From an uncultured virus (IMG/VR IMGVR_UViG_3300029305_005079) (lineage: Duplodnaviria > Heunggongvirae > Uroviricota > Caudoviricetes), in the IMG/VR virus record IMGVR_UViG_3300029305_005079: a DNA stretch of 64,000 nucleotides, one strand, 5' to 3'. The translations under genes were made by a program, and so were the position numbers. Below, one piece after another: positions 4,682 to 32,250 of this stretch (the stretch's first letter is position 1; every line of letters begins with the position of its first letter). The notes below the pieces were generated by a model. The model searched no databases, was not told the origin of the DNA, and saw only the letters and a list, made by a program, of their open reading frames with translations.

Positions 4682-5140
4682 TTATTTGATATTTATATGG
4701 ATTACATTAAATCTAGTGCTTACTTTTTCGCTATTAGGCTCGATACAATCAAATTTATATTCTACAATTATTGAATCATCATTGAACTGAATGGTTATCC
4801 GTTTAGCATTAGCAGCAATTAATCTATTTAAAAGTTCTCTATCGATAGAATGGTCTAATCTGATCACATTTACCAGATTGGTAGGAGTCATAACTATCTC
4901 TTTTACATGATTTTCTTTAGCATAATCTAAATCGATATTAGATGTAGAATTATCTGCACGTATAGATACGAGGCCTTCCATATCATCTACATAATAATGT
5001 GCTGAGAATTCATTATAGATTGGAATATGCTCGCATTTTAACTCTTTATCAAGGTTTATCATAGTTATAGACTTACGAACTCCATCCATGTCTGTAAAAT
5101 CTATAAGATATTTTACATGGTCAATCAACATCTTAATCAA
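4682..5140 (-). CDS. hypothetical protein
   Basis: ORF overlapping the upstream stop in an operon. Confidence 0.65.
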   Translation of the reverse strand: MIKMLIDHVKYLIDFTDMDGVRKSITMINLDKELKCEHIPIYNEFSAHYYVDDMEGLVSIRADNSTSNIDLDYAKENHVKEIVMTPTNLVNVIRLDHSIDRELLNRLIAANAKRITIQFNDDSIIVEYKFDCIEPNSEKVSTRFNVIHINIK

Positions 5141-7006: not shown

Positions 7007-7026
7007 ATCGATCCCTCCTTTCTATA

Positions 7027-7287
7027 TTACTTTTCTGTGACTTCGATATTAGGACCGCACCAAATATATACTAAATACTCACCATTATTTTCGAGAGTGA
7101 TGCATACGTTTGGATTATTAGCCACATTTGTTTCAAGAATTTCTGCTAATTCTGTATCTCTAAGATCGACCTTAGAGATGGATCGCCTTACAATTTCTAT
7201 AAGACGATATCCTTCGATAGTTCCTCTGTTGATAATCTCTTTGATAATTATATTATAAGCTTCTTGAATGATATTAGGTCTTGCCAT
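7027..7287 (-). CDS. hypothetical protein
   Basis: coupled ORF with RBS. Confidence 0.6.
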   Translation of the reverse strand: MARPNIIQEAYNIIIKEIINRGTIEGYRLIEIVRRSISKVDLRDTELAEILETNVANNPNVCITLENNGEYLVYIWCGPNIEVTEK

Positions 7288-15769: not shown

Positions 15770-16540
15770 TCAATCATTTAGCCAATTTTTAAGATATCTA
15801 AATATATCTTCAAGTCTGCCATCTCCGATAAAATAATGTTTATCATAAGACTTATGTCCATGTACATAATGAGAAACTTTCATCATAACCGGCATCCATC
15901 TTCGGCTTCTTTCATCTTTAAAGAATGTTACATTTTCGAGTACAATTAGTCTGGATAATCCGAAATCACCCTCAACAGCAAATATCGAATGTTTTGCACC
16001 TTCAAAGGTTAATAATTCGTATCTTAAGTTAAAATATTTAATATTTCCGCTTATCTCTTTAAAAAGAGACGCATCGAAATTAATATTATTAAATTTTTGA
16101 ACTCTTACTAAACCCTTAGCTCTATCGTTTTCATAATAGATTGAATCGGGGTTTGTAGGACCACAAAATTCATATTTTGCTAACTTTGCAAGATGCTGTA
16201 TCTTAAAATATTCTGTTGGACTGGTGCAAGTAATATAGTTTCCAAAATTTGGCCATGCTTTGTTGATAATACCGCTACGCATAATTGTACTCATAATACC
16301 GATATTTCTAAACGCTTCATGTAAATATATATGAAGATCATCATTATCCATATTATAAATAATACCAGCACGTTTACCATTATAAACAATAAGCAAGTAG
16401 TATCCATCAAAATTATCATAACTATAGCTATCAAACTTGAGCAAAACTATGTCATTATCTATACCATAGCACTCTTTATACACATTAATATCTATCTCAT
16501 CAGTTAAACGTGATAAAGATTTATTAGTCATTATTATCAT
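15770..16540 (-). CDS. hypothetical protein with possible N-terminal GNAT-like domain
   Basis: LHIYLHEAFRNIGIMS resembles GNAT motif A. Confidence 0.5.
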   Translation of the reverse strand: MIIMTNKSLSRLTDEIDINVYKECYGIDNDIVLLKFDSYSYDNFDGYYLLIVYNGKRAGIIYNMDNDDLHIYLHEAFRNIGIMSTIMRSGIINKAWPNFGNYITCTSPTEYFKIQHLAKLAKYEFCGPTNPDSIYYENDRAKGLVRVQKFNNINFDASLFKEISGNIKYFNLRYELLTFEGAKHSIFAVEGDFGLSRLIVLENVTFFKDERSRRWMPVMMKVSHYVHGHKSYDKHYFIGDGRLEDIFRYLKNWLND

Positions 16541-17078
16541 CCTTCCTTTCTAATATCACAGCCCTTGAAATTGCTAATTTAAAATCCTGCTCTGAAATAA
16601 ACTGAGATAGATAGTATTTCCCTTTAATTAAATAAAGAGCCAAATATTTTGTAAAACTTTCTAAAATACGCATATTCATTTCTGTATCCGATTTGGTAAA
16701 ATATGCATATTTAGTGAATTGAACAATTTCATCCTTTTTATAAGACATAAGCTGTTTAATATCCATCGTACATACACCAATTCTGTATACATATAGACTT
16801 CCATCATTAAGCCCCATGCAGCGTATTTCAAAAATTTCAAGCATTCTATCCTGCCAGATGATTCTAATATCATAAGTGCCGGAATTATAAAAATCGTTAG
16901 ATGCCGATTGATAATCAATTCTTACATCTTCTGGCAATTTATCCATTAGCATTTTCAAGAATTTCTTTAGCAAAGATTCTGGATACATTAATTGTATCTT
17001 TTCATCTTTGCCCATTGCATGCTCGATTGTAATAGGAGCATGTGCTATAAATTCGCTAGATTCAATATTGTTTTTCAT
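16524..17078 (-). CDS. hypothetical protein, tandem paralog family
   Basis: PITIEHAMGKDE N-terminus similar to the two upstream genes. Confidence 0.65.
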   Translation of the reverse strand: MKNNIESSEFIAHAPITIEHAMGKDEKIQLMYPESLLKKFLKMLMDKLPEDVRIDYQSASNDFYNSGTYDIRIIWQDRMLEIFEIRCMGLNDGSLYVYRIGVCTMDIKQLMSYKKDEIVQFTKYAYFTKSDTEMNMRILESFTKYLALYLIKGKYYLSQFISEQDFKLAISRAVILERKDDNND

Positions 17079-17092
17079 ATGTCTTTATCTCC

Positions 17093-17626
17093 TTACAAGC
17101 CAAGACTTTCGGCAGTTATAATCTCTTCGGAAATATAATTTCCTGTTTGCATATAAATACGTAATGCTTTTACAAAAGTATCTATAAGAGTAATATTTAT
17201 AGAAGGGGTTCCATATGGTTTAAATATTACACAAACTCTATTTGCATTGGCTATATCTACATTATCTTGCATCATACCTTCTGGTTTGGATAGATCATTT
17301 AAATAGCAAGTAATTTGGGTTAAGATATAATAGTCGTTATCTACAGTTTTTGAACATTTTATCGCCCCAAGTCGTATAGCTTTATTGTTATAAGAAATCA
17401 TAAGGGTATAAGAACCGGGCGCGAAAAATACAGATCTTTCACTTAAATCGCCGCTAACGCTTATAGCCCAATCTGGTAACCCATTTAACAGGTTTTCAAG
17501 AAAGTAATTAATTAATTCGCCAGCTTTTTCAAATTCTTTCTTTCCCTTATCTTCTCTTGTAGCTGCACGCTCAAGATCTACAGGAATTGCATTAAAGATT
17601 TCATTGATTTGGACATTGTCTTTCAT
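17093..17626 (-). CDS. hypothetical protein, tandem paralog family
   Basis: IFNAIPVDLERAATRED; early promoter 17666-17677. Confidence 0.65.
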   Translation of the reverse strand: MKDNVQINEIFNAIPVDLERAATREDKGKKEFEKAGELINYFLENLLNGLPDWAISVSGDLSERSVFFAPGSYTLMISYNNKAIRLGAIKCSKTVDNDYYILTQITCYLNDLSKPEGMMQDNVDIANANRVCVIFKPYGTPSINITLIDTFVKALRIYMQTGNYISEEIITAESLGL

Positions 17627-17726
17627 ATTATTCCTCCTAAGAAATAAATTTTATTTTATACATGATTATAATATACACTCAAAAAAAAATAAAAGGAAGA
17701 GCTTTAAAACAGCTCTTCCTTTCTTC

Positions 17727-18206
17727 TCATTCGAGTTCATCTTTTGAAATATAGGTATGGATGACCTCTCCTGTATTTAAAAATGTTTTAAATACTTTTA
17801 CAAGTAGATCTATTAGTTTATTATCGATTATATCGTCAGACTCTATGTCAAATTCTATTTCTCCTTGCTGAGGGAATCCAGCATTATAATCCATATCGCA
17901 GAAATAGAATCCTATATGATGCAATCGTACAATAGGATTATTCGCAAACTTTATACAGTTGAAATTGTTTATAATTATTTCACGTTTATCGCGTCTAATT
18001 ATAGACTTACATATATAAGATTCATGATAACCCGTATATTCAAAACTTCTTAAATCTATATATGCCATAGGGTTTTCTTCTTTTATCTTATCGAAAAGCG
18101 TTTCGATAAGTTTAGCAGCACATTTAAATTCATCCATATTTCTATCTTCTCTTGTTATAGCATGACTAATATTGATAGGAATATTATTAAAAATAGTTTT
18201 ATCCAT
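17727..18206 (-). CDS. hypothetical protein, tandem paralog family
   Basis: IFNNIPINISHAITRED. Confidence 0.65.
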   Translation of the reverse strand: MDKTIFNNIPINISHAITREDRNMDEFKCAAKLIETLFDKIKEENPMAYIDLRSFEYTGYHESYICKSIIRRDKREIIINNFNCIKFANNPIVRLHHIGFYFCDMDYNAGFPQQGEIEFDIESDDIIDNKLIDLLVKVFKTFLNTGEVIHTYISKDELE

Positions 18207-18266
18207 AATTATATCTCCAAAATTATTATATAGAGGAAGAGTATGTATAACTCTTCCTCTATATTT

Positions 18267-21200
18267 TTAAATAAGGCTGATATACATAAGAATTTCTTCG
18301 CATATCAACTCCGGAATTACAGTAATTCGCTGACCGTCTAACTCGCAATCTTCAGGATCAATAATTTCAAATTCACTACTAAGAATGACAGCAATAATAC
18401 CAAGAATATGCTTCTCAATCTTATCATTCCTATACTTGTCTTTGATCTTTTCCCAAAGAGGAGAAGACTCCAGCTTGGTAAGCTCTTTCTTATTCACATT
18501 CTTACGTGTAGCAAGACGCAATACTTTAGAGCTTACGATATGAGGCAGCATAACCATTCCAGAAGCTTCTAGAATTCGCTTTGCTGCAATAATAAGCACA
18601 ATATAATCATCCAGATTGATCATATTTAACGCTGAGGTCATTTATATTCATATAAGGTCGTTAATCTTATACCGTTCTCTTATGAACTGCTATATGTCAC
18701 CATATAGATTAGACTATATCTTTATCCACTTATTTCAGTTGGGATAACTACCATTTCCACTCACTTGAGTGTACGTCTTATTAGACTAGTCGTTGAACCT
18801 TTCTATTATAGAATTGCAATTTTAAGATACATACATCCGTTAGAATCTATATCCGGCTCTATATTATATACTTGCTGTTTCATATATATTTCCGGAATAT
18901 CGTTTATATCTGAATAGATATGATGTATATCGCGATCATTCGCATCAAAACATTCTCGAATAGGTACAATCTTATATTTATAAGAATTTTGCCTAACTCC
19001 AGGATTTTGATGCTCTAAAATATCAGATAATTTTAAAATCATATCTTTAATCCTCCTATACTAGACTTGGCTGCTGATTGTCTCTCTCGAGAGTTCCCAG
19101 CAATTAAATAGTTGTTGTTTTCTCTGTATATTCCTATACAGGGGAACTTTCTCAAATCCCCAAAATACTTGAAAAATAAGTTAAATACTAAATCTCTCTG
19201 GAATGCATTTACGGTACATTTTGCTCCATCTGATAGTCTATGCTTATAATACTGAATCTCATCAGGATCAAAAGGACCGTACATAAGCTTTATTTGATTC
19301 ATAGCATCATCTGACGCTGTCTGTGCTTGTACTAACAGCGCAGTATCAGCTTTGTTGAGAAAACTTTCGAACTTGTCGAATTCACTCGTTTGTGTTCACA
19401 TAGGTCGCTAATCTATGCAGTTCTCTTATGAACTTCTATATATTTCTATACAGACCAGACTATATCATTACCCACTTATTTCAGTTGGGGTACTCTCCAT
19501 TTCGAACTCGCTTGAGCCCTACTCTACTTGATTCATCTATATACTTAAATGTCTTTCGATAGTCGTTGAACCTTCCTATATAGATAGGCTTGGCTGCTGA
19601 TTATCCCTACATGTATGATCAGAGGATTTCCCAGCAATTAAAAGAGTTTATTGTCATAGCATTCCTACTATGCTGAACTAGTTGTAATATTAATTCAGAT
19701 CTTCGTCACGTCTGGACGAGGAGAGCGAAATAAAACTAAATTCGTATTCTATATCCAAAATCTGGAAGCCTGTATTGCGTAAGATTGATTTATAATTAAG
19801 ATGGACAAGGTTGCCATCATAACGATACTTAGGCATAATATTTATCAATACATTCTGTACAGATTGTAGAGTATGAATACTTGTATTTATACCTCTAATA
19901 TCCTGCATATTCCAAATAGTCTGATTTCGTTTAGCAGTTCTCAGAACATTTGAGATTGCAGTTTCGTAGAGTTTGTTATATATGTCTATATCATACTTTC
20001 TGTCATATTGTTCGATAAGTATGTCATAGACACTTAAAATAAATTCCGTGGAATTGGTAATCCCACGGGCATACATAAAATGACACATTAATGGAATCAT
20101 ACAATTCATAATGGTAGATGCTTTCATCATCACCTGACCATGTCTCGTTATTTTCACCTAGACCGCGGCTAGGCAGTTATCAATCAAACTGTTACTAAGA
20201 TTGATATCATCTTTAGGATTTGCCTAAAGACAAGACTATATCTTCACCTTCAGCTCTACCTGTTAAGGTGCTCCCCATTTCGGATCTCGCTTGAGTCCTA
20301 CTCTACTCACTACTTCTATAAACGCCGGTGGTATTTATAGAAATGTTTTCGATAGTCGTTGAACCTTCAAACTGCGCCCTCCCCGGGCTTTATGTACTTC
20401 CGTGCGCCAGGGTTAAAAAGGTAAAAATGTGTTTCGTGGTTTGCCAATAAAAAGAAAAATACGTTCAATAAAAAGTTTCTGGTGCCGATGACAGGACTTG
20501 AACCTGCACGGACTTATCCACTGGTTCCTAAGACCAGCGTGTCTGCCAATTCCACCACATCGGCATATATTTATTAAAGCAAACAAACGAACTTCCAGGG
20601 TTTGGGGCGGCGTAGTGCTTGGCTGCTGATTGTCGATTGTCGATAATACTTAGAGTTTCCTCATATATCATCTTATCTGTTTTTTCTGACTTTCGTCTCT
20701 ATGGGAGCATGACGATAACTTTACGCCTTCTCCTGTAGTGGATAAGCTTTACGACTTCCCAGCAATTAGAGGAGTTTGTTCCGCTATATTTCTATATCGG
20801 AGTGACTAAAATTTTGTTGTAATCACTGTATTGCAAATTCGGATTCTTGAGATTTTTGTACGTCAAATTCAAAGAGTAGTTATCTCTATTCATGTATCCA
20901 ACTTTAAGAGAAATGGATCCATTCATAATATAACGTGTCAAATCGTAGAAGAATGCTTCTCTCGTATATGCAGGCTCATAATCGATAAGATACTTAAGTC
21001 TGCAATATATCATAGGAAGCTCATGCTCTAAGTCATAGAATTTTTCAAAGTAATTTAAATACTGAATTGTATGAGCTCTCATCTCAGGATTATTATAAGA
21101 ACGTTTCGTACTCATTACAAAGGCATCGAGCTGAGGATTCGGCTCCATACCAAAAAAGGAAGAAACGTCTAACATAATTGCCCCTCGGACGGTCTTGAAG

Positions 21201-21301
21201 ACCTCATCCTCAGGACACTCAGGTTGCCACTCATCAATAGCCGGTCGGTCGACTTTGTCGTGGAAAACCATTGGTTCAAATAATTCGTTGTTCAAGCTCA
21301 T
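18267..21301 (-). CDS. sigma-like promoter-specificity subunit of the non-virion RNAP (AR9 gp226/phiKZ gp68-like), 511 aa, 4 exons: 20822-21301, 19693-20145, 19156-19386, 18267-18638
   Basis: Removing three group I introns gives in-frame joins LQYSD|RHGQ, DEDLN|SEFDK and KYFGD|TSALN. Motifs KRSY, NKLY, IMPK, NAFQRDLV and EEILMYISLI match AR9 gp226 as recalled (not aligned). Early promoter at 21334-21345. Confidence 0.8.
18639..19155 (-). mobile_element. group I intron A (IA-like, 517 nt) with internal small ORF
   Basis: P AATTGCTGGG 19096-19105; Q AATCAGCAGC 19070-19079; R TTCAACGACTA 18787-18797; S GATATAGTC 18712-18720; P1 GGGGAU/GUUCCC with U.G; terminal G at 18639. Confidence 0.9.
18806..19042 (-). 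CDS. intron-encoded 78-aa hypothetical protein (P6 loop of intron A)
   Basis: own RBS AGGAGG; no LAGLIDADG, GIY-YIG or HNH motif. Confidence 0.7.
   Translation of the reverse strand: MILKLSDILEHQNPGVRQNSYKYKIVPIRECFDANDRDIHHIYSDINDIPEIYMKQQVYNIEPDIDSNGCMYLKIAIL
19387..19692 (-). mobile_element. group I intron B (306 nt, no cargo)
   Basis: P 19630-19639; Q 19593-19602; R 19560-19570; S 19458-19466; P1 CUGAAU/GUUCAG; terminal G at 19387. Confidence 0.9.
20146..20821 (-). mobile_element. group I intron C (676 nt) containing a tRNA gene
   Basis: P 20758-20767; Q 20622-20631; R 20353-20363; S 20234-20242; P1 AGUGAU/GUCACU; terminal G at 20146. Confidence 0.9.
20480..20564 (-). tRNA. trnL: tRNA-Leu(UAG) with encoded CCA, inside intron C
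   Basis: acceptor GCCGATG/CATCGGC + A-CCA; D loop TGG; anticodon stem CTGGT/ACCAG with loop CT-TAG-GA; long variable arm; GGTTCAAGTCC T arm. Confidence 0.95.
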
Positions 21302-21347
21302 TGTTTCAAAAACCTCCTAATTTATTTTCATCTTTATAATATACAGC

Positions 21348-22142
21348 CTATTTCTTGTTTACCTTCTTTGTCATTTTTACTGTACCGCTCCGCTTTACGG
21401 TATTAGCATTTTTAACATTTCCGGTTGTCTTTGTCATTCTGATATTACCAGAAGGACTGACTACAGTTCTAGACTGAGTATTATCATTTTTAGATGCATT
21501 TTCTTTACGTTCCTTGGCTTCTTGTTTTCTTACTTTTTCTCCAAGTTCTTGACGTCTAGCAATCTTAGTATCAGTATGCTCCACACTATCAACAAGCATT
21601 TTCTTATTATAAGGCATAGCATATGCTGTATAGACCGACTTAGCGAAAAGATTCTTGGATTTCATAAATAAATATGCAAAGTAAAGAATCTTAGAATATC
21701 CGGGAACTTCATAAGGGTTTCGTTCCTTAGGGTCATTTTTCAATGCAAGTCTTGAGGCCTTCGGCTTTAAGTCCTCAAAAAATATGTCGTTCTTTAGAAA
21801 TACTCTTAAATAAGTAAAAACGAACGCTGGATCATTCGAGAAGAATTTGACAGAATAATCCTGTAAGCTGGGTGATGATTTAATAGCCGCATCATTTGAA
21901 TAAAATAGAATGACAGCATCGTAATAGAAGCCCTTTATGGTTTCGGAAGGTACTTTAATATGAGCAACATATCTGTCCTTCTCTTTATCTATATACAATA
22001 CATAATTTATTTTACCAGCTTCTCTTAGGAATACCTTATCAAACTTTTCTGTATACAGCTGTTTAAATAGATCTCTCTGAGAGAATACAGCATTTCGTTT
22101 TCCCATAGGATTATCTATGTATTGTTGAAAACTCATTGTCAT
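21348..22142 (-). CDS. conserved jumbo-phage hypothetical protein
   Basis: 264-aa ORF with FFSNDPAFVFTY motif; late promoter 22169-22180. Confidence 0.7.
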   Translation of the reverse strand: MTMSFQQYIDNPMGKRNAVFSQRDLFKQLYTEKFDKVFLREAGKINYVLYIDKEKDRYVAHIKVPSETIKGFYYDAVILFYSNDAAIKSSPSLQDYSVKFFSNDPAFVFTYLRVFLKNDIFFEDLKPKASRLALKNDPKERNPYEVPGYSKILYFAYLFMKSKNLFAKSVYTAYAMPYNKKMLVDSVEHTDTKIARRQELGEKVRKQEAKERKENASKNDNTQSRTVVSPSGNIRMTKTTGNVKNANTVKRSGTVKMTKKVNKK

Positions 22143-22221
22143 CCTTATTCACCACCTTTTAAATGACTTATTATAAAGTTTTTTATGTTATAAAAAGTAA
22201 AAACTTATTGTAAAAGTTTAC

Positions 22222-22265
22222 AAAAAAAAGAAAAGGTTATTGTACAATAACCTTTTCTTTTTTTT
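22222..22265. repeat. 44-bp perfect palindrome / terminator
   Basis: A8GAAAAGGTTATTGT|ACAATAACCTTTTCT8. Confidence 0.85.
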
Positions 22266-22376
22266 TGTTTCATGATTACAATATGTAATTAAAAAGCAGA
22301 AAGAGTTTTGCAACAAATAATTCGCATTCTGCTGGACCCCTTCCAGGAGTTATTTGATATATCATGTGATACTTCT

Positions 22377-22676
22377 CTATTTGATTATTTTAAAATAGCC
22401 ATAACATGTTTTATTTGATTTCATACCTTCTTTGATTTTAGGATCATCAGGATAAGGCAGTACATCAAATGGACCAGAATAGTCATATAATCCCGAATCT
22501 ATTCTGTCTTTTCCCTGATAAGCCCAATCTATTAAAACACATTCTATAGGTATTAAAGTATCTGGATTATCATACTCGATAGCTGCAAACATATTTTTAT
22601 CTTTTGTAGATTGCATTATTTTCCATCCACTTTTATCATTCTTCATAATTTCTATATAAGGTATTAAATTATTCAT
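22377..22676 (-). CDS. hypothetical protein
   Basis: coupled to the rtcB stop. Confidence 0.6.
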   Translation of the reverse strand: MNNLIPYIEIMKNDKSGWKIMQSTKDKNMFAAIEYDNPDTLIPIECVLIDWAYQGKDRIDSGLYDYSGPFDVLPYPDDPKIKEGMKSNKTCYGYFKIIK

Positions 22677-23818
22677 TTTGTTTCACCATCCGCTTTAAAG
22701 TTATATATTGGTCGGATTATACCATCAATTCTAACTGTATCGCTTATACGTTTAGTAAGATATTCCATCGATTTATAAGCCATGGGAGCTTCATCTATAG
22801 TACTTCTCATAATAGAAGTACTATAAATTCCTTTCATACTCTTTTTAAATTCAGAAAGAGTAATAGCATTTCTAGCTTCCTCTCTAGACATTAATCTTCC
22901 TGCTCCATGCGGTGCAGAATCGTTCCAATCTTCATTTGCTTTTCCTGTTACTATAAGCGATCCATCTCTCATATTAATCGGGACAATAGATCTCATCCCT
23001 CTAGCAGTAGAAATACAGCCTTTTCTCATTCTATATCTATTGCCAGCGTTATCAATAATAAGACGAATATAGTTATGACAGCTGTTAAGTCCATCAAATA
23101 TATCATATTTCCATTTCATTTCAACGCATATTCGTCTTAAAATGGTCAATCTATTTATATGAGCGAATTCTTCAAGCATATCTACATCTTCTACAAAATC
23201 TTCTGCAAACTCACCATCCAGATAAGTAAATGCGTAAGGTTCTTCAGGGTGCTGTTCTTTTGCCTTAGTTTTATAAAACTCTGCAACTTCAGCACCAAGA
23301 TGACGACTTCCGCTATGAACGATAAGCCAATAGTAGTCTTTGTCTCCTACAGTTTCGATACCAAGTTCAATGAAGTGATTTCCTCCACCGAGTGTTCCAA
23401 CACTTCTAAGAGCTTTATCCTTATTAAATACATTACAGTTAAGCAAATCTAGCATATCTCCATCCATAGCTAAATTATTTAAAGGTTTATCATAGATTCT
23501 CATTCCATTTGGAATTTCAAAATCTATAAATTTATCTAACTTTTCTAGATTAATTTTAGGCTTTCCATGAAGCCTAATTCCAGTTATTCCACATCCTATA
23601 TCACCTCCAAGCAATATAGGAGAAACTTTATCTTTTGTATCCATACTGGTACCGATAACACATCCGGCTCCTGCATGAACATCCGGCATAATTCTTATTT
23701 TAGCATCTTTTCCAATTGTACTATTTACAAGAGCATTTATTATACCTAATGAATTTGTATCAATTATATCTGTAAATACTTTGCAGTTTTCAGATATAAT
23801 AGTTTCATAATTTCCCAT
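22673..23818 (-). CDS. rtcB: RtcB-family RNA ligase
   Basis: MPDVHAG, GGDIGCG, GTLGGGNHFIE, VHSGSR, HN, RKG, SAPHGAGR, DEAPMAYK. Confidence 0.95.
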   Translation of the reverse strand: MGNYETIISENCKVFTDIIDTNSLGIINALVNSTIGKDAKIRIMPDVHAGAGCVIGTSMDTKDKVSPILLGGDIGCGITGIRLHGKPKINLEKLDKFIDFEIPNGMRIYDKPLNNLAMDGDMLDLLNCNVFNKDKALRSVGTLGGGNHFIELGIETVGDKDYYWLIVHSGSRHLGAEVAEFYKTKAKEQHPEEPYAFTYLDGEFAEDFVEDVDMLEEFAHINRLTILRRICVEMKWKYDIFDGLNSCHNYIRLIIDNAGNRYRMRKGCISTARGMRSIVPINMRDGSLIVTGKANEDWNDSAPHGAGRLMSREEARNAITLSEFKKSMKGIYSTSIMRSTIDEAPMAYKSMEYLTKRISDTVRIDGIIRPIYNFKADGETK

Positions 23819-23917
23819 TTTTTAATCCCTTTCATAATATAAAAGATTTTGATAATTTGGAACTTTGCACTGAATGATTTACCTTCAGTGCAATCCTTAT
23901 TTATGATTATTTCTCCT

Positions 23918-24256
23918 TTATACCTCTAAAAATATTTCTCCTACTACAAGACAGCCAGACACTCTATCAATATTGCATGGATTACATAAAATATAACCTT
24001 CTTCACTACTGAATGTAAGTATAGAGCCATCCGGTAATTTTGTAGAGAATTTTTGTTTAACTTCTTTTATTGTAGCCATAAGAATATCATCATTGAATTT
24101 CCTTATAGCTACATAAAGTTCTGGTATAGATATACATTCGTGTCTTAATTCTTTGGGCCATGTATCATTATCGGTAGAGAAAAACAGCTTAGCCCTGAAT
24201 TCTTCAGCACCGGCATCTTGTACAAATAGAAACATAAATTCTTGAAGTTTTATCAT
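23918..24256 (-). CDS. hypothetical protein (start likely MIKLQ at 24256)
   Basis: ATGA overlap with the upstream stop; RBS GGAGGT. Confidence 0.6.
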   Translation of the reverse strand: MIKLQEFMFLFVQDAGAEEFRAKLFFSTDNDTWPKELRHECISIPELYVAIRKFNDDILMATIKEVKQKFSTKLPDGSILTFSSEEGYILCNPCNIDRVSGCLVVGEIFLEV

Positions 24257-24906
24257 TGTATACCTCCATGATCCTGGACCCACTTAAGCGGATCTTTTTC
24301 GAATTCTTTTACATCATCGAGATTGATCGCACCGTTCTTATGCCAGTATCTAAGTAATGCAATTCTGCAAGCTAAAGGTCTAGCGCATTCCATAGTAATA
24401 AGCTTACCATCACAACAATTAGCAAAGCTTCCTAAAGAGGCAAGGCAAGCAAGAATTTCAGAAGTAATGTTTTCCATAGTAAGCTCCTCAAACGGAGTCA
24501 CTTTATGAAACATTAGTTTTGGTTCCTCCCTATGTATATCTGGCTTTGCATTAGTTCGTCTGTGATCTTTAAAGATCCATTCAGAATTTTCGTGCAAACT
24601 ACACCAGATATCTCTGAATCCATCTGGTAGGAATTTATATTCTTTTAAATAATCTCTATCGGCTCTTGTATTTCGAGCTTTATCTAAAAGATTTATTAGA
24701 GCTACATATTTCTGATTAAGCTCTAATACACAGGATTTTTGTCCTTCTTTAGACTTCACATTACGAGTTTTCATAAGATTTTCGCATTCTTTGACCATAT
24801 CATACAATACGGATTCGAAGTCTTTAATAAATTCGTCTTCAGTTTCATTATTCATTAATCTAGCGAAATATTCTTTTGCTTTCATATACATATCGTATCC
24901 TTTCAT
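24253..24906 (-). CDS. hypothetical protein
   Basis: 217-aa ORF. Confidence 0.65.
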   Translation of the reverse strand: MKGYDMYMKAKEYFARLMNNETEDEFIKDFESVLYDMVKECENLMKTRNVKSKEGQKSCVLELNQKYVALINLLDKARNTRADRDYLKEYKFLPDGFRDIWCSLHENSEWIFKDHRRTNAKPDIHREEPKLMFHKVTPFEELTMENITSEILACLASLGSFANCCDGKLITMECARPLACRIALLRYWHKNGAINLDDVKEFEKDPLKWVQDHGGIQ

Positions 24907-24956
24907 AAAAAATTAAGGGAGGATGTTTGAGCATCCTCCCTATATGATTTCCCATC

Positions 24957-25313
24957 TTAAGTATTAGGGAGAGTATCTGTAGAAATACTAATAGCTGCGA
25001 TAACTTTACCATCTTGAATGGTGAAAGATTCGATGTCATTAGCATTATAGAATTCAAATCCCATATTGGAAATGATATCTACCCATGCATCTGCTGTAAA
25101 GTAATTTCTTTTAAGTACAAGAGCTTCTGTGGTATCTACATCTACATTGCCCTTTACGAGTTTATGGAGAATTCCATCTGTGAATGCTACCTTATTAGTA
25201 TCATTCTCAAGAGTGAATTCGCTTCCGATAAATCCTCTTGCTTTGGCAATTTTACAGGCGATCTTACCACAGGTTTCCTTGTCATTCATGTCAATTGTTG
25301 CGTTTCTTTTCAT
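24957..25313 (-). CDS. hypothetical protein
   Basis: RBS AAGGAG; early promoter 25378-25389; followed by a terminator. Confidence 0.65.
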   Translation of the reverse strand: MKRNATIDMNDKETCGKIACKIAKARGFIGSEFTLENDTNKVAFTDGILHKLVKGNVDVDTTEALVLKRNYFTADAWVDIISNMGFEFYNANDIESFTIQDGKVIAAISISTDTLPNT

Positions 25314-25395
25314 AACACATTCTCCTTTAAAAAATAATTATTATTTTCGAATCTAACTATCTGTATTAGATTCATAGTAATAATATTTAATTATT

Positions 25396-25854
25396 TTAGA
25401 GATTAACGGGTATGATTCCTTTAGCAATCTCATCTCTAACTTGCATAAGAATTTCCCCCAATTTGTTTCGTCCTCTCAAAGTAGTACGGTCAATACCCCA
25501 GTACATATCTCCCCATGTATTACCTTCGTATAATCCCGCACTTCCTGTATCTAAAAGCATTTTTGCCAATTCAGGATCTGAGAATTTTGCTTTTATTACA
25601 TCATACATAATCTGATCTTTAACATCTTCCCAATCAGGTCTTAATTTAACACGTCTTCCCAATCGTTTAGCCTCGGAAGGATTTAAATCGGAAAATCCTA
25701 GTCTACCATCTTTATTCATGCATTTAGCTGACTGGAAAGCAGCTTCAGAATTTCTATATCTTATCCCATCATAATAAATTGGATATTCATAAAAGTTGCT
25801 AAGAAAGGAATACTCTCCAGTAAAGCTGAGAATAATCTTAATATCATTTTTCAT
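25396..25854 (-). CDS. NADAR (YbiA-like) family protein
   Basis: FLSNFY, SEAAFQSAK, AKRLGR, LRPDWEDVK, EGNTWGDMYWG, GRNKLGEILM. Confidence 0.92.
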   Translation of the reverse strand: MKNDIKIILSFTGEYSFLSNFYEYPIYYDGIRYRNSEAAFQSAKCMNKDGRLGFSDLNPSEAKRLGRRVKLRPDWEDVKDQIMYDVIKAKFSDPELAKMLLDTGSAGLYEGNTWGDMYWGIDRTTLRGRNKLGEILMQVRDEIAKGIIPVNL

Positions 25855-25909
25855 TATAATATCATCTCCTTTGTTACTTTTAATATATAATTAAGAATCG
25901 TATAAAACA

Positions 25910-26228
25910 AAAAAAAGAAAGCACCTTTTATATTTGCTTTCTCAAAACCCAAAGGTTTTGCCTACATATTTCTATGAGGTTTCTACTCGATTATTCCAAA
26001 TGAACCGGTAAATATCATTTGGAGTCTTCCTTCTTCGATCCAAGGATTTGGGATCTTATCATATTGAGAGTAGTAGGCTGTATTTAAACTTGCCATCTGA
26101 TGTTCGCCTTTATAAGGTTTTCTCAGATTATTAGGAAGATTTTCTATCGTATATGAAAAGATTGGAAATTGGCAAAAATCCATAAAGTATACGATAGAGG
26201 GCTATTGAATAAACTTTTGTTTATTCAT
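25910..26228 (-). ncRNA. candidate structured ncRNA (~320 nt)
   Basis: early promoter 26231-26242; terminator 25916-25942 + U tract; many stems and possible pseudoknots; no ORF with an RBS. Confidence 0.55.
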
Positions 26229-26310
26229 AATTATAGTATACATTCAAAAAATAATTTATATTACAAAAATAAATGTCTAGGACTTTGTATCGCCCTAGAC
26301 ATTTATTATT

Positions 26311-29300
26311 TTAAAATACAGGATTTGACATCTTTCCCTTGTCTTCTTCAAGGCAGAGAGTAAGATTGTACAAACTCTGAATGGCTTCTTTATCGGAAGT
26401 TCTAACACCCTTAGAACCAAGATTAAAGTAATGAGATTTAGCTCGTAACTGTTCATCTAATTCAGCATTAGCCTCTTCTGAAAAGACTCCTTTGATCGTA
26501 ACTTGGTCACCATCCTAAATAATTTTATGCTCGCAACGCATTTCCTATCTTTCGATAGTAATTAGACTATATCATATCAAGAATACTCTTGATCTCCCCG
26601 CTTCGAATCGTCATTAGCCTACGATCCTACTCTACTTGATTCATCATATAGATGTCTTTCGATAGTCGTTGAACCTTCTCTTTATATAAAGAGCTTGGCT
26701 GCTGATTGACATAGGATTTATCCCTTAGCTTTCCAGCAATTCAAGGAGTTTAAGGATTACAATCGGTGAAGTTTATAATCCGTATTGGATTTATGATTTA
26801 TACATACTACCTTTATTTTCATAAAGGGCTAGACTATATCTTATCTCTTATAGAGATCTTCCCGTTTCGGATGTCTCCTACTCTACTCGATTCATATTTC
26901 TATGTCTTTCGATAGTCGTTGAACGTTCTCCCTTATTAGAGAGCTTCGCTGCTGATTAGCATATCTTTTGACTTAGCTTTCCAGCAATTAGAGAAGTGTT
27001 TATTTACATCGGAGGCAATTAATGATGGTTTACCACCGATGCCGTCAAGGTATAGATTGGTCAAATTCAAAGTATCAATAAATCTATTTGATGTATTTGA
27101 ACCAATATCGTTTTGACGGATAAGAGGATAATTCTTATAATAAGTACCATTGATAATCATAGGTTCTGTCTTTGTAGTAGACGAGATTCTTACTTTTGTA
27201 GGGAATTGGTTAAAGTAGCTATCGCAATATCTTCATATGGAGTCGTTAATTCCATACCGCTTTTTAAAGCAGCTCTAGCTCACGCTAGAAGTTGAGACTA
27301 TATCTTTACCCTTTCGGGTACTCCCCATTTCCACTCACTTGAGTGTACTCCATTTCTGGATAGTCGTTGAACATTATTCAATACATGTAAAGAATTTCTT
27401 TTCCAAGTGATCTAGCAAATTCTATTTCACTTTTTGTAGATTTTCCAATATAGCCATCTTTATTTATTACATAAATAGCATCAGCCATACGAATTTTTTC
27501 TTTATGCATTCTATCAAGCATTTCTTTATTTGAACCTTCCCAAGCTTCTTCATCGCCTGAATGTCCAAATAAACCCACAGAGATAACTATATTCCCTCTA
27601 AGAGTAAGCTCTTTTTGAGCTTTGATAAAGTCATCTTTAAATTTTGTCGAACCGCATAAAGTAATTATTGGAAATCTGAAATTATTAATGATTGAATCTT
27701 TGCTGCTGATTGTCTCTATAACTGTATTATCTGAAGAGAAATTATAATTTTTCTTTTCGATAAGCCTATTAATATTGATTCGTTTAAGTAGATATATGTG
27801 TTCATCTTGTTTGATTATTTCTTGCAGTTCATCTACTTTGGGAAGAGTAGAAAATCTGTATCTTTCATAATCATTAAAGAAGTCTATATATACCTCTCTA
27901 GCCATATATGGTGATGTATATGCAGGTTGGAATATCCAATTAGATCTTATATCAGATCCGTCTACATATATTTTGAGATATATACATCTATTGTCACCAG
28001 GCACAAAATACTGTCTTGAGTTATTGAATACAGCTGTATAAATTTCTTTAATATTCTGAACTTGATAGGCTGTAAGCGCTATCTTTTCAGGACTAGCTGT
28101 TTTAATAAAATTATCTACAAAATCACTCATATTTATCACTCCTTTATTATATTACTAAAATGATAAGATATGATTATAGTTGTAATAAGAGACGTCCCAG
28201 CAATTAAAGGAGTTTTCACTAGTAGATTTCTCTACTAGGCGACCAATTTGATCGGATATCTAGTTATTAGAACATGCTTATCCTTAGTTGCTTCAACTGC
28301 AGCCATATAAAGAACATCACACCATGTGAGATCTCGCTCCATAATAGGAAGCTGTCCAGGATCGTGCTTAGCATATTCTTCCTCTGTCATACCATATCCC
28401 TTAAATCTAAGAACCACAGTTGGTCCTTCTACAGTAGGAACCCTGATCGGAATAAATCTATTTGAGAATCCGGTACAAAATCTATCGATTTCTTTACGGA
28501 TTCTTTCATCGGAGAATTCAACCTGGTAATCCTTTGGATGCAAATAAGATACTGTTCCATTCTTAACCATAGGGATTACGGAGTCTCCGGAAAATTCATT
28601 TTCAAAGAATCTTCTTACATGATAAACTACAAAAGGTAAGAAGTTTACGCATGCAGATGCTAGAGGAAGCAAGGAATAATCCAAATCAGCCTCAATATCA
28701 TCTAAGCGTTCAACTTTCAATTCAGGAGCGGAAAGAACAAGACGTGAACCATAGTCAGTAGTCTTACTCATAACAGCTCTTCTTAGAATACCTGTCTTAC
28801 CAGGAATTATGTTTGTAGTCTTCTCTCCATTAATAGTAGTACCAGAACCAAACCAGTCGTAAATTTGTACAAGAGTTTCTTGAATTCTACCTCTTGTAGC
28901 AGCATTTAGATTTAGTCCGTATTCTGAAGATTCTTTAAGAGCTTTTACAAAAATAATAAGATTTCTATAAAGCTCATTAATCTCTCCTACAGCAACGTGT
29001 CCGCCTTCAGTGTTAACGTCTCTATAGTATGCAGGACATACTACAAATTTGCGGATAAACATTTCCGGAGTACCCATATATTTTTCAATAAATTGGACTC
29101 TCATATCACGTTGTCTAGAAGAGGTTCTTTTAAGTTTAAATTTGTCTATATTTTTTCTAATGAATCCAATACCATTTTCGCCATTCTCATCAGGAACTAG
29201 TTCTCCATCTTTAATAATGAAAGTATTAGTACCATGAACGCATGCTTTGATATTGGAATCTATTTTGCACCACATTTTATAGATAAGAGGATTCATAAAA

Positions 29301-29521
29301 TACTCTTCAAGATTAATGTATGCAAAAGTATTTGCTCGATCATATTTTGTAATTCCAAAAATCTCATTAGACAAAAGTCCATCTGAAGTTGGAACTGAAT
29401 TTCGAACAAAGAATACTGGATTGGTTACTTCTTGAAGATCATTAACCTTTACCAGCTTTTCAGGATCTATTAGATTGACCCTAAGATGATTTTCTTGAAT
29501 AAAATCTGGCATTTTCATCAC
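26311..29521 (-). CDS. RNA polymerase beta' N-terminal/catalytic subunit (probably virion RNAP), ~557 aa, 4 exons: 28251-29521, 27032-27224, 26775-26780, 26311-26514
   Basis: DGLLSNEIFG, GKTGILRRAVMSKTTDYGSRLVL. Splicing gives ITRYP(AT|C)DSYFNQ and GIGG|DY|DGDQVT (catalytic DxDGD). Late-type promoter variant CACA-N6-TA at 29527-29538. Confidence 0.9.
26515..26774 (-). mobile_element. group I intron F (260 nt)
   Basis: P 26732-26741; Q 26698-26707; R 26663-26673; S 26565-26573; P1 GAUUAU/GUAAUC; terminal G at 26515. Confidence 0.9.
26775..26780 (-). other. 6-nt micro-exon GATTAT (Asp-Tyr of the RNAP DYDGD motif)
   Basis: lies between the terminal G of intron E and P1 of intron F; needed to complete the catalytic motif. 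Confidence 0.88.
26781..27031 (-). mobile_element. group I intron E (251 nt)
   Basis: P 26980-26989; Q 26948-26957; R 26913-26923; S 26832-26840; P1 AUCGGUGGU/GCCUCCGAU; terminal G at 26781. Confidence 0.9.
27225..28250 (-). mobile_element. group I intron D (1026 nt) with an internal ORF spanning the P5 and P6 loops
   Basis: P 28196-28205; Q 27702-27711; R 27361-27371; S 27296-27304; P1 CGAU/GUCG; terminal G at 27225. Confidence 0.87.
27378..28139 (-). CDS. intron-encoded 253-aa protein with C-terminal nucleoside 2-deoxyribosyltransferase-like/DUF4406-like Rossmannoid domain
   Basis: ITLCGSTKF...HKEKIRMADAIYVINKDGYIGKSTKSEIEFARSLGKEILY; RBS AAGGAG; no endonuclease motif. Confidence 0.7.
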   Translation of the reverse strand: MINMSDFVDNFIKTASPEKIALTAYQVQNIKEIYTAVFNNSRQYFVPGDNRCIYLKIYVDGSDIRSNWIFQPAYTSPYMAREVYIDFFNDYERYRFSTLPKVDELQEIIKQDEHIYLLKRININRLIEKKNYNFSSDNTVIETISSKDSIINNFRFPIITLCGSTKFKDDFIKAQKELTLRGNIVISVGLFGHSGDEEAWEGSNKEMLDRMHKEKIRMADAIYVINKDGYIGKSTKSEIEFARSLGKEILYMY

Positions 29522-29545
29522 CTCTTTAATACTATGTGAAGTTTA

Positions 29546-29773
29546 TCACATCACACTAATTGCTATTGAACTTTCCCAATCATTAGCATTTAAGTCTTCA
29601 TTATTCATAAAGTGTGCCATACCAGTTGTTGTATTTCGTCTTAATACTCTTACGTCGTAGTCTTTATACAAATACATCTCTTCATCTATAGGCCAGCTAC
29701 AACGTCTAATAATTAAACCACTCTCTCCAATAAGTAGGCCTAATGCTTGGGAGAATGTCATTCCAGTCATCAT
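29546..29773 (-). CDS. small hypothetical protein (DUF2829-like)
   Basis: MTFSQAL...IRRCSW...EDLNANDW pattern; RBS AGGAGG. Confidence 0.55.
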   Translation of the reverse strand: MMTGMTFSQALGLLIGESGLIIRRCSWPIDEEMYLYKDYDVRVLRRNTTTGMAHFMNNEDLNANDWESSIAISVM

Positions 29774-29816
29774 ATTTTCCTCCTTTCTTTATATCACGAA
29801 AATGAAAGCTGCCTCC

Positions 29817-30122
29817 TCAAGAGGCAGCTTTCGTAATTATTGTAAGGACTGAAGCTCCATTAATTTCCATGTTAATATTGAATTTATCATTATATACACT
29901 GAAAGAAGATGCATTAAAATCTTCATATAGAGCTTTTGCGTCTTCTTCTGTTTCCATCAGCAATCTGAAGGTTACCTGAGACGCTCCATTTTCTGTACAA
30001 ATATCTAAATCCTGTCTATCTCCGACTATATTATATAAAACCATTAACTCATCAAAGCAGTTTATTATCACAGCCGATAGATCATCAGAATTTAGATTAT
30101 GAATAAAATCCGTTGTATTCAT
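29817..30122 (-). CDS. hypothetical protein
   Basis: RBS GGAGG. Confidence 0.65.
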   Translation of the reverse strand: MNTTDFIHNLNSDDLSAVIINCFDELMVLYNIVGDRQDLDICTENGASQVTFRLLMETEEDAKALYEDFNASSFSVYNDKFNINMEINGASVLTIITKAAS

Positions 30123-30124
30123 GG

Positions 30125-30418
30125 CTAAAACGCGCCTCCTTCGACTAAATCTTCCATAGCTTCTTCATACATATCAGCCTCTAGAGACGACATAGGCGGT
30201 GTTTCATCGTTGGCTGTATCAATTCTTTTTGCATCAGGTGGAGCCGCGCGTCTAATCAAAGGCGGCAAACCCTTCTTTCGACGCTCGGCATTTTCTTCCT
30301 CTTCCCTCTGCTTAGCTTCTCTTTCGGCTCGTTCCTTCTCGGCTTTAGCATGGGCTTCGGCACGATCATATACGAGCTTATAATACTCATGCAGTTCTCG
30401 GAAGGGACGATCCATCAA
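30125..30418 (-). CDS. probable frameshift extension of the upstream tail/baseplate chaperone
   Basis: no RBS; frame open upstream to 30517, overlapping the end of 30472-32250. Confidence 0.55.
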   Translation of the reverse strand: MMDRPFRELHEYYKLVYDRAEAHAKAEKERAEREAKQREEEENAERRKKGLPPLIRRAAPPDAKRIDTANDETPPMSSLEADMYEEAMEDLVEGGAF

Positions 30419-30471
30419 TTCGACAATCGATATACGACCTTTTAGGTTTAAAGATATCGATTCGACATATT

Positions 30472-32250
30472 CTACATACTGCCGATAGCTGCCAACTGAT
30501 GCCGTGTAAAAAGCATGTTATCAGGAGACATATCGGTATTTGCAGGAATTTCTGTTGCACATTCGGGGCAGTTACATGCAGGAATCTGATAGCTCATCTT
30601 AGAAGCTTCATCATCGTAAGAACCAACGATAGATCTAAGAGTATAATACTCCTCAGAGCTGAGCTGGCTAATTACATCATAGAATGCTTTAATACGACGA
30701 GCAGACGACTTTGCCTGATCATTGGGATCGGGCTTAGTATCGATAGGAATAAGCTGGCTATTCTCATTATCGATAATATAAATACCTTCGATGTAGGAAA
30801 CGAGATCGATAAGGTCTGCATGCTTTTCAAGGAACTTGTCAGAGAGGCTAGCAGTCTCGATAATAACATTCCATACAGAAGGAGTACGAAGTGCAAATGC
30901 ATAAGAATTAGAGATCTGATAAAGATCAGCCTGATAAGAATCGGTATTAGGCGTTGTAGAATCCATTCTCATAATAGAACGGACCTTTTCACGAGTCTTA
31001 TCATCCTCATATACAACCATATCCTCAAACTTGATATCCTTAAGGAATACCTTACTACAATGAGGACACTGATAGTTTACAAAATTAGAGCCATTAAACG
31101 TTGCCATATAAATAGCAAAGTAAATGTGCTGGAGATCTACGAAACGAGTCTGCTTGAGCCAAGTTTCGAATTCAGGCTTATTAGCATCGAATACATGATC
31201 ATAAAGAACTCTATACATATCCTTGAAAGTATTGAGTCTATTACGAGAAGTATTCTCAGGATTAAGCTTAAGGATCTCAGGACCAGAAAGACCAGTCATA
31301 GAGATCGGGCGACCTTCGCTAAGCATTACCCAGTCAGCAACGCTTTCTCTGCTCTTAGCAGCTAGCTTCATAGCCTTCTGAGCATTAATAGACTTCTTAG
31401 AGAAGGTAAACTTAGAAAGATCGAGCTTGGAATTCTTTACAGGGGTAATCTTTTCATTAAATTCCTTCTTAAGCTCACCGAGGATTTCATCGCTAGTCTT
31501 ACCAGTGCTAGGTTCTGTTTCAGCGAGTTCCTCATCATCGGCAAAAAGATCTTCATCATCGATACCATCGAGAATGGAAACCTTTTCTGTAGTAACAATA
31601 CGAGCCTTAACAGGTTCCTTAGGCTCTTCTGCAATATCTGAAGGCTTTTCTTCAACTTCTTCAGCAGCAGTCTTCTTTACAACAGGTACAGTTTCTGTAA
31701 TTACTTCTTCCTCAGTATCTACAACGATATTTTCAGATACCGTTTCTTCTTCGTGGGTAAATGCAGAAACTCTAGGTCTGATGATATTATCAGTATCAGA
31801 AGAATCGTCATCCTCGTCATAGAGACCAAGATCATCATCTTCATCATCGCTATTTGCAACAGAAGTAGATACGGCTGCAGCATCTGCCTCTTCATTAGCC
31901 TTTTCCTCAATCTCAGTCTGCTGAGCCTGTACTACAGCATCGATTCTATCATCGATGTTTTTACATTCTCTATCTACAGCAGCATCAAGATCTGCAAAAA
32001 GATTATCTTCCATGGTAGGTTCAGCTTTACGCTTAGGAAGAATATCCGTGGCTTCAAGCGTCTTCATACCATCCATATTTACGGGTCCAGTCTGAATAGG
32101 AGTAGCTTTAAACTTCTTCTCTTCAGTAGCGGGAGCTTCCACCCCCTGATCAACGGTAACCTTTCCTCTTGTAAGATCTACAGGTGCTGTAGATCCAGTG
32201 CGAGGAGTACTATCCATCATTTCGTTAAGTGATACATTCTTATCGCTCAT
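30472..32250 (-). CDS. putative baseplate-hub/tail assembly chaperone (T4 gp26-like C-terminus, acidic N-terminus)
   Basis: two CxxC pairs (YQCPHC, CNCPEC); LRTPSV; long D/E-rich N-terminus. Confidence 0.55.
   Translation of the reverse strand: MSDKNVSLNEMMDSTPRTGSTAPVDLTRGKVTVDQGVEAPATEEKKFKATPIQTGPVNMDGMKTLEATDILPKRKAEPTMEDNLFADLDAAVDRECKNIDDRIDAVVQAQQTEIEEKANEEADAAAVSTSVANSDDEDDDLGLYDEDDDSSDTDNIIRPRVSAFTHEEETVSENIVVDTEEEVITETVPVVKKTAAEEVEEKPSDIAEEPKEPVKARIVTTEKVSILDGIDDEDLFADDEELAETEPSTGKTSDEILGELKKEFNEKITPVKNSKLDLSKFTFSKKSINAQKAMKLAAKSRESVADWVMLSEGRPISMTGLSGPEILKLNPENTSRNRLNTFKDMYRVLYDHVFDANKPEFETWLKQTRFVDLQHIYFAIYMATFNGSNFVNYQCPHCSKVFLKDIKFEDMVVYEDDKTREKVRSIMRMDSTTPNTDSYQADLYQISNSYAFALRTPSVWNVIIETASLSDKFLEKHADLIDLVSYIEGIYIIDNENSQLIPIDTKPDPNDQAKSSARRIKAFYDVISQLSSEEYYTLRSIVGSYDDEASKMSYQIPACNCPECATEIPANTDMSPDNMLFTRHQLAAIGSM

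Follow-up and report, generated by a model that had tools for sequence, protein, structure and literature searches.

Two RNA polymerase genes split by six group I introns without recognised endonuclease genes in an uncultured jumbo phage related to AR9 and PBS1

Group I introns in phage genes, including the polymerase genes of jumbo phages, are well known. Orf142 of the Staphylococcus phage Twort contains three of them, of which two similar neighbours flank an exon of 23 nucleotides (nt), and exon skipping has been reported (PMC10136302); the shortest natural phage or bacterial exons of this kind named in the excerpts of that paper measure 23 and 34 nt. For PhiPA3, the published excerpts describe a group I intron in a jumbo-phage RNA polymerase (RNAP) gene and the use of its HNH endonuclease in phage competition (PMC11878797, PMC12908238). 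In phage AR9, gene g145 is annotated as joined from three pieces (statements on AR9 are drawn throughout from its GenBank annotation and from PMC12350094). From mitochondria, the excerpted reports describe a 1-nt exon between two group IB introns of placozoan cox1 (PMC5436844) and a fungal intron that encodes trnI (PMC12308204). Here, we analyse a 64,000-nt stretch of DNA, hereafter the window, from an uncultured virus (IMG/VR IMGVR_UViG_3300029305_005079), in which six group I introns, all on the minus strand, interrupt two essential RNAP genes, three in each (I1-I3 in gene 1 and I4-I6 in gene 2).

We consider it likely that these are six mobile self-splicing introns, which arrived by homing at conserved sites and are now without endonuclease genes. 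Judged from the sequence, all six would be spliced out of the transcripts. The source of the window is an uncultured jumbo phage, a distant relative of the AR9/PBS1 group, and among named phages, Listeria phage LPJP1 was the closest, with 35% identity. In gene 1, exon 2 matched the PHROGs family phrog_25005, 'RNA polymerase' (3.6e-9), as well as AR9 g226, annotated as a non-virion RNAP subunit (E 5.3e-7, 20% identity over exon 2). In gene 2, exon 1 matched phrog_2986 (7e-57), and its sole match in AR9 was g145, which according to its annotation codes for the virion RNAP beta' subunit, N-terminal part. Gene 1 presumably serves promoter recognition, the role ascribed to gp226 in the AR9 annotation and in the literature. 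The original prediction had assigned the introns to two genes of the transcription machinery; this holds for the gp226-like promoter-specificity subunit and for the beta' with its catalytic DYDGD motif, with the correction that the beta' gene codes for the N-terminal part only, and of the virion RNAP. The two genes, their exons and introns, and the matches of the introns to the Rfam group I model RF00028 are as follows.

18267..21301, minus strand: gene 1, homologue of AR9 gp226, non-virion RNAP subunit; 511 amino acids (aa) when spliced; exons 21301-20822, 20145-19693, 19386-19156 and 18638-18267 (with stop codon)
20146..20821, minus strand: I1, 676 nt, its P6 loop holding a tRNA-Leu and its P5 enlarged by a further insertion of about 100 nt; RF00028 match 20211-20831, 55.3 bits
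19387..19692, minus strand: I2, 306 nt, no open reading frame (ORF); RF00028 match 19436-19702, 91.1 bits
18639..19155, minus strand: I3, 517 nt, its P6 loop holding a 78-aa ORF; RF00028 match 18690-19165, 44.5 bits, E 9e-9, P6 being extended by an insertion of 239 nt
26311..29521, minus strand: gene 2, homologue of AR9 g145, N-terminal part of virion-RNAP beta'; 557 aa when spliced; exons 29521-28251, 27224-27032, 26780-26775 and 26514-26311 (with stop codon)
27225..28250, minus strand: I4, 1026 nt, holding a 250-aa ORF; RF00028 match of the 3' half 27273-27501, 39.8 bits, E 2e-7
26781..27031, minus strand: I5, 251 nt, no ORF, between G-G and D-Y; RF00028 match 26810-27041, 95.4 bits
26775..26780, minus strand: micro-exon GATTAT, 6 nt between I5 and I6, coding for the D-Y of the catalytic DYDGD
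26515..26774, minus strand: I6, 260 nt, no ORF, between D-Y and D-G-D; RF00028 match 26543-26787, 78.9 bits

The RF00028 gathering score is 50 bits, and a permissive scan of positions 17500-30500 added two sub-threshold introns to those of the whole-window scan. Four of the six introns thus reached the gathering score, with E-values across the six ranging from 2e-7 to 5e-24; the search with Infernal group I models that had been proposed along with the original prediction therefore bears it out in full for these four, and for I3 and I4 at E-values of 9e-9 and 2e-7 below the gathering score. The low scores of the latter two are attributable to their large insertions (239 nt and more). A regular-expression search found the core elements in order in every intron, namely AATTGCTGG[GA]A (P4), AATCAGCAGC (P4'), GTTCAACGACTA (J6/7-P7) and GATATAGTCT (P7'). 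RNAfold of the exon/intron boundaries returned, in 6/6 cases, a P1 hairpin in which the final U of the exon is paired with G, and a terminal G was present at each 3' end, so that the six complete minus-strand cores with U·G P1 and terminal G described earlier were recovered as such. Every Rfam alignment further contained an insertion of 30-60 nt after P7 (P7.1/P7.2-type). At the DNA level, the closest matches to the introns were intron-like sequences of Staphylococcus Twort-like phages, with 81% identity over 158 nt; the introns are of a type common in Gram-positive phages and may belong to subgroup IA2 (phage T4/Twort type).

P9 is the last element covered by the Rfam model, and cutting there leaves the reading frames closed; the real 3' splice sites lie 28-66 nt downstream. 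These were set by the reading frame, by collinearity with intron-less homologues and by a shared tail, in the case of I4 and I5 also by hand-paired P10. In I1-I4, P9.1/P9.2-like hairpins follow beyond P9, and then a common tail UGAA...G at the end. The 3' site of I4 was selected by a 4-bp P10 together with the alignment to LPJP1; alternative sites, with the exon starting at 27233 or 27230, were rejected as having no P10 and extra residues absent from LPJP1. An alternative 3' site of I1 (exon 2 from 20157) was likewise rejected, since it adds VKIT, which is absent from AR9, LPJP1 and the metagenomic homologues. With the chosen sites, removal of the introns restored the two predicted frames, the products being 511 and 557 aa long with one stop each, at the end.

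Comparison with intron-less homologues, another check proposed beforehand, bridged all six junctions without gaps by at least one intron-less relative. Exon 2 of gene 1, used as the query of an exhaustive HMMER search, gave 147 proteins at E ≤ 0.001; among the 12 that were read, full-length homologues of 500-552 aa ran uninterrupted across all three junctions, with P0130, P0135, P0136, P0138 and P0145 collinear with the spliced gene. With a slash marking the intron position, the I1 junction LQYSD/RHGQVMMK aligned with LIYNNKHGKLLMK of a homologue, the I2 junction RDEDLN/SEFDKFES with RDEDNNSEFDKFES, and the I3 junction KYFGD/TSALNMINLDDY with KYFGDSTSINAINRDDY.

Viral loci carrying gene 1 numbered five, three of them identical, leaving three distinct relatives (L022, L024 and L026). 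Sequences G001 and L010/L014 represent a 44-kb fragment of essentially the same phage as that of the window and were not counted as independent support. L022 was interrupted at the I1 site only, being contiguous over the I2 site (87% identity) and the I3 site. L024 was interrupted at the I2 site alone, by an insertion of about 1 kb, and was contiguous over the I1 and I3 sites. In L026, insertions occupied all three intron sites and two other positions, five in all. The introns at the I1 site of L022 and L026 are orthologous, and those at the I2 site of L024 and L026 are about 1 kb long with HNH ORFs. Across 3396-8317 of L026, the five insertions cut the gp226-like gene into exons down to 20 and 27 codons; four of the five match RF00028 and two hold HNH ORFs. 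The I2-site insertion of L024 (4954-5989), with its HNH/NUMOD4 ORF, is homologous over about 1 kb to the I2-site intron of L026; it gave no RF00028 match at E ≤ 0.01 and may be a diverged intron missed by the model.

For gene 2, the spliced sequence aligned with the intron-less rpoC1 of LPJP1 without gaps at the junctions (TRYPIDSYFNQFP against TRYPVDNYQSIFP, and GIGGDYDGDQ against LGADYDGDT), and the metal-binding motif DYDGD became readable only once I5 and I6 were taken out. A scan of viral contigs returned eight beta' loci, one of which was the window's own phage; the seven others were counted. Three of these had no intron in the beta' gene (L017 and L018, with 77% identical beta', and L020, with 50%), one had an intron at the I5 site and three at the I6 site, and all seven were contiguous at the I4 site (0/7 interrupted). 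At the place of the micro-exon, intron-less L017 reads GGT GGA GAT TAT GAT GGT GAC in DNA and GIGGDYDGDQ in protein. L016 holds a 1152-nt intron with a 274-aa ORF at the exact nucleotide position of I5, and the 5' end of I5 is homologous to the 5' part of this ORF-bearing intron. In L015, L019 and L021, an 891-nt intron occupies the exact position of I6; a 208-aa HNH/NUMOD4 ORF was read in it for L015, the only one of the three that was read.

The 6-nt exon between I5 and I6 serves both introns. In P1 of I6, GGAUUAU pairs with GUAAUCC, and I5 can form a 5-bp P10 with GAUUA by hand pairing. As the same six bases serve both introns, we infer that I5 and I6 would have to be removed one after the other. 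The guide of I6 was found to co-vary with the exon, GAUUAU/GUAAUC in the window being replaced by GACUAU/GUAGUC in L015, a compensatory change. The seventh pair of I6 P1 uses the terminal G of I5 and becomes a U·C mismatch once I5 is removed, a thin hint that I6 is adapted to the presence of I5. The two introns resemble each other over 126 nt at 82% identity. Counting the site of the AR9 intron along with those of I5 and I6, the phage group uses three different insertion sites in a 9-nt stretch of the DYDGD codons.

None of the 68 window ORFs scanned matched a homing endonuclease family in Pfam (12 were scanned at E ≤ 0.01 and 56 at E ≤ 0.001). For the 78-aa and 250-aa ORFs, no endonuclease match (HNH, GIY-YIG, LAGLIDADG, VSR/EDxHD) was obtained in Pfam down to E 10, in PHROGs or in NCBIfam. 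The earlier statement that no intron encodes a recognisable homing endonuclease thus stands, and the companion search for free-standing homing endonuclease genes, here confined to these window ORFs, gave none either. Detection of HNH_3 and NUMOD4 in intron ORFs of relatives served as the positive control for this search; the matches were as follows.

L026 5280-6059: HNH_3, 34.3 bits
L024 5182-5790: HNH_3, 25.4 bits
L026 6451-7140: HNH_3, 24.6 bits, just below the cut-off of 24.8
L015 7592-8218: NUMOD4, 31.6 bits

Altogether, four of the five long intron ORFs of the relatives matched HNH_3 and/or NUMOD4 in Pfam, and at the sites of I2, I5 and I6, three of four long ORFs are endonucleases of these families. 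The fourth, the L016 intron ORF at the I5 site, gave no Pfam match; an HNH-like pattern, HRLVA...NHK...NLEW, was recognised in it by eye. These relatives suggest that the introns of the window once held endonuclease genes and lost them. Sporadic occupation of the sites, together with endonucleases in the relatives, argues for a homing cycle of selfish introns and not for a required regulatory device; such cycles are known.

Three of the introns hold cargo, listed here with the elements of the I4 core.

20480-20564, minus strand: tRNA-Leu(UAG) in the P6 loop of I1; found by ARAGORN, RF00005 58 bits
18806-19042, minus strand: 78-aa ORF in the P6 loop of I3, with a strong Shine-Dalgarno sequence ahead
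27378-28130, minus strand: 250-aa ORF in I4, starting at 28130 behind AAGGAG
28215-28195: P3-P4 of I4
27716-27691: P5'-P4'-P6 of I4
27382-27361: P6'-J6/7-P7 of I4
27329-27316: P3' of I4
27304-27295: P7' of I4

The nested tRNA-Leu has a cloverleaf, a long variable arm and an encoded CCA end, and it is the sole tRNA found by ARAGORN in the window. The same tRNA is present in the orthologous intron of L022, the two copies differing at 26 of 85 positions (59 columns invariant). All 23 stem pairs are standard in both, nine of them having changed on both sides; none of 500 shuffles reached the observed value, and slid partners gave 0-2 such pairs. In the orthologous I1 intron of L026, the tRNA was found to be largely deleted. 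We conclude that the nested tRNA is at least functional-looking and, from this pattern of substitution, apparently under selection. A scan for promoter-like sites around it was uninformative (18 against 14.5 expected). L022 also has a free-standing tRNA-Met (6966-7042), located about 1.4 kb downstream of the gene for its gp226 homologue; in the window, there is no tRNA besides the tRNA-Leu.

The 78-aa ORF belongs to a family of six homologous protein clusters with 44-97% identity and 26 invariant columns. It gave no family match in Pfam, PHROGs or NCBIfam, and the Atlas search returned unnamed viral clusters only (score 0.86). Both this protein and the one encoded in I4 would be expressed from their introns, as would the tRNA.

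The original prediction had placed all three cargos in peripheral loops, which is accurate for the tRNA-Leu and the 78-aa ORF; the 250-aa ORF is cargo as well, yet it is not contained in one loop and runs through P5', P4' and P6. P5 of I4 is formed by GUCUC (28193-28189) together with GAGAC at 27716, and P4' and P6 by the AAUCAGCAGCAAAGAUUC that follows. The N-terminal domain of the protein (residues ~1-125) is accordingly encoded in L5, the linker by P5'-P4'-P6, which the ORF reads as ETISSKDS, and the C-terminal domain (~150-250) in L6. An AlphaFold2 (AF2) model with a predicted local distance difference test (pLDDT) score of 73 showed two domains joined by a disordered linker at 122-151.

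The C-terminal domain was predicted to adopt the NDT/DNPH1 fold. Foldseek gave DNPH1 8rpt_B as the best match (E 5.1e-4, template-modelling score by target 0.47), with NDT also among the best, and comparison by VIA with residues 143-250 gave Z 10-12 to NDTs, with Z 12.0 to 1t1j_B and 11.3 to NDT 6evs_B (96-105 residues aligned, root-mean-square deviation 3.0-3.2). Scores of Z 8-9 to TIR and ThsB folds were also obtained by VIA. Pfam DUF4406 scored 16.4 bits, below the cut-off of 22. The NDT-like cargo protein that had been foreseen was therefore recovered at the level of the fold, and this fold is confined to the C-terminal domain. The domain was present in 2582 proteins at E ≤ 0.001 with varied fusion partners, at about 70% identity to that of the window. 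Many of the metagenomic relatives of this NDT-fold domain of about 100 aa (27378-27680; P0007-P0120) are labelled Bacteroidales and are fused to DUF4298, HIT, GNAT or HTH; an identity of about 70% is unusually high for a phage-bacterium pair. No usable Atlas match was obtained for the N-terminal domain, and a PDB sequence search gave nothing below E 0.48; folded alone, it reached a pLDDT of 57 and a best Z of 4.3, without a match.

Full-length homologues of the 250-aa ORF were P0001-P0006. In P0002-P0004 (66-68% identical), ISSKDS is kept and the flanks vary, ISSKDS being the core AUCAGCAGCAAAGAUUC read in one frame. In P0005 and P0006 (about 50% identical), DNQQQRF stands instead, which corresponds to the window core GAC AAU CAG CAG CAA AGA UUC one frame over. 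Scans of viral contigs with P0004 and P0005 as queries returned relatives of the C-terminal domain only. Judged from their protein sequences, the ORFs of P0002-P0006 probably lie in introns as well. Since two frames seem to read the same core, it is suggested that the RNA, and not the peptide, is conserved at this stretch.

This tie to the intron also bears on the possibility that the 78-aa protein, the 250-aa protein or both act in mobility, as homing endonucleases that escaped recognition or in another way, which we regard as unlikely. In its favour, the 250-aa family appears bound to the intron by its two readings of the core, its N-terminal domain has no match and a model of low pLDDT, and the same domain gave a weak profile match to the 78-aa family (hhalign probability 49%, E 1.7e-4, 31 columns). 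It is opposed by the lack of any endonuclease family match in the three databases, by the N-terminal alignment, in which no invariant acidic or histidine motif stands out, by the widespread, enzyme-like nature of the C-terminal domain with its many partners, and by the 78-aa length, which is short for a known endonuclease. A more specific proposal sees in the 250-aa protein not a passenger but a novel factor for the mobility or maintenance of its intron: the N-terminal domain would direct an N-glycosidase domain of NDT/DNPH1 fold to the allele without the intron, in DNA that possibly contains uracil, and repair of the lesion would copy the intron. We consider this a long shot; it would explain why the family seems to pass through one and the same ribozyme core in two frames. 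A gene for a dCTP deaminase-like protein (37132-38109, plus strand; 4e-34) was observed in the window and, with the AR9/PBS1 kinship, hints that the phage may have uracil-containing DNA.

It appears very unlikely that the introns are retained for regulation, their splicing being a timing or GTP-sensing checkpoint on the production of polymerase, and that they carry useful genes by design. Both split genes belong to the transcription machinery and contain three introns each, and group I splicing requires guanosine; the compensatory changes in the nested tRNA and the membership of two cargo ORFs in conserved families imply that the cargo is probably useful. Against this, at least one relative lacks an intron at each of the sites, and relatives with up to 77% beta' identity (L017, L018 and L020) are intron-less in that gene. 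At some of these sites, relatives have introns with HNH endonucleases, which indicates selfish spread, the tRNA has been lost from the orthologous L026 intron, and no feature specific to sensing was found. The checkpoint advanced in the original prediction is therefore not upheld. Its view of the introns as safe-harbour vehicles fares better in part: to call them cargo carriers is fair, given that three have cargo, but a benefit to cargo or phage is conjectural.

That some introns are decayed, non-splicing relics and one or both polymerase genes pseudogenes is highly improbable, for although two introns score under the Rfam cut-off, a 6-nt exon seems hard to process and contigs show no clean exon-exon junction, all exons are open and 77-91% identical to the genes of relatives, the core elements are all intact with the low scores explained by insertions of at least 239 nt, and the I6 guide co-varies with its exon.

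Several observations weigh against the reading of the six elements as self-splicing introns that have lost their endonucleases. I3 (44.5 bits) and I4 (39.8 bits) fall under the Rfam gathering cut-off. The splice-site U of I3 faces U in the Rfam register, and the U·G pair is formed only in the RNAfold register, shifted by one base; for I1, hand pairing gave no convincing P10. The contigs of two sequencing runs (probably DNA) joined similar intron cores from different places and contained no clean exon-exon junction. The endonuclease scan covers the 64-kb window, and free-standing endonucleases may lie elsewhere in the genome. Finally, the case for endonuclease loss is drawn from relatives only, and the ORF-less forms could be ancestral. 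In the collaborative-homing model, as set out in the excerpts of PMC3984707, ORF-less introns later gain endonuclease genes.

If the six elements are self-splicing introns of homing origin, each would remove itself by two guanosine-initiated transesterifications, and the mRNA would be translatable only afterwards. P1 would pick the 5' site via its U·G pair, and the terminal G would mark the 3' site. At the micro-exon, the six bases would pair first with the guide of one intron and then with that of the other, so that the neighbours would splice sequentially. The loops that normally house endonuclease genes would now house the tRNA-Leu, the 78-aa protein and the two-domain protein.

Further features of the window were recorded around the two genes.

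22673-23818 and 25396-25854, minus strand, between both intron-rich genes: an RNA ligase of the RtcB family (Pfam 8.9e-49) and a protein with a NADAR domain
5137-5748, minus strand, further off: a HAD domain protein of the 'Swiss Army Knife RNA repair' type
29546-29773, minus strand, just upstream of the beta' gene: a 75-aa ORF with a weak match to Tad2-like proteins (Thoeris anti-defence; E 2.3e-4, 22.1 bits against a cut-off of 25)
16524-18206, minus strand, directly downstream of gene 1: a row of three ORFs, each 159-184 aa long, with N-termini alike by eye and no family match, which may be paralogues
18228-18264, 3 nt past the gene 1 stop: a perfect 15-bp hairpin with T-runs on both strands, resembling a bidirectional terminator

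By their predicted domains, the RtcB, NADAR and HAD proteins look like an RNA-repair set.

With introns of this kind so well documented in phages, the overall picture at this locus is ordinary; what is out of the ordinary are the 6-nt micro-exon, the nested tRNA and the threaded ORF. The micro-exon is a natural test of two ribozymes sharing one tiny exon, and of whether skipping of that exon yields a dead polymerase. With a tRNA kept by compensatory evolution in a ribozyme loop, the question arises of how processing and splicing spare each other. In the threaded ORF, RNA-level and protein-level constraint fall on the same bases, and the three insertion sites within 9 nt offer a good system for studies of intron competition. 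A literature search found no phage counterpart of the placozoan 1-nt exon or of an intron-encoded tRNA; the placozoan cox1 and the fungal trnI intron are alike in having a micro-exon and an intron-borne tRNA, respectively, both being mitochondrial, whereas the window is of phage origin.

Among phages, the intron of PhiPA3 compares with those of the window in lying in a jumbo-phage RNAP gene, and HNH introns occur at the same sites in relatives of the window phage; unlike in PhiPA3, the introns of the window itself are without an HNH endonuclease. Twort Orf142 shares with gene 2 the presence of three introns in one gene and of similar neighbours (I5 and I6) around a very short exon, but its exon measures 23 nt, whereas that of the window measures 6 nt and codes for part of the catalytic motif. 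In AR9/PBS1, g145 is the orthologous gene, with 30% identity over exon 1, and is interrupted near TRYP and inside DYDGD, the latter group I intron site, between DYD and GD, lying 3 nt downstream of that of I6. AR9 g145 has two introns, each with an endonuclease gene (g146 and g147), whereas its counterpart in the window has three, none with a recognised endonuclease and two of them only 6 nt apart.

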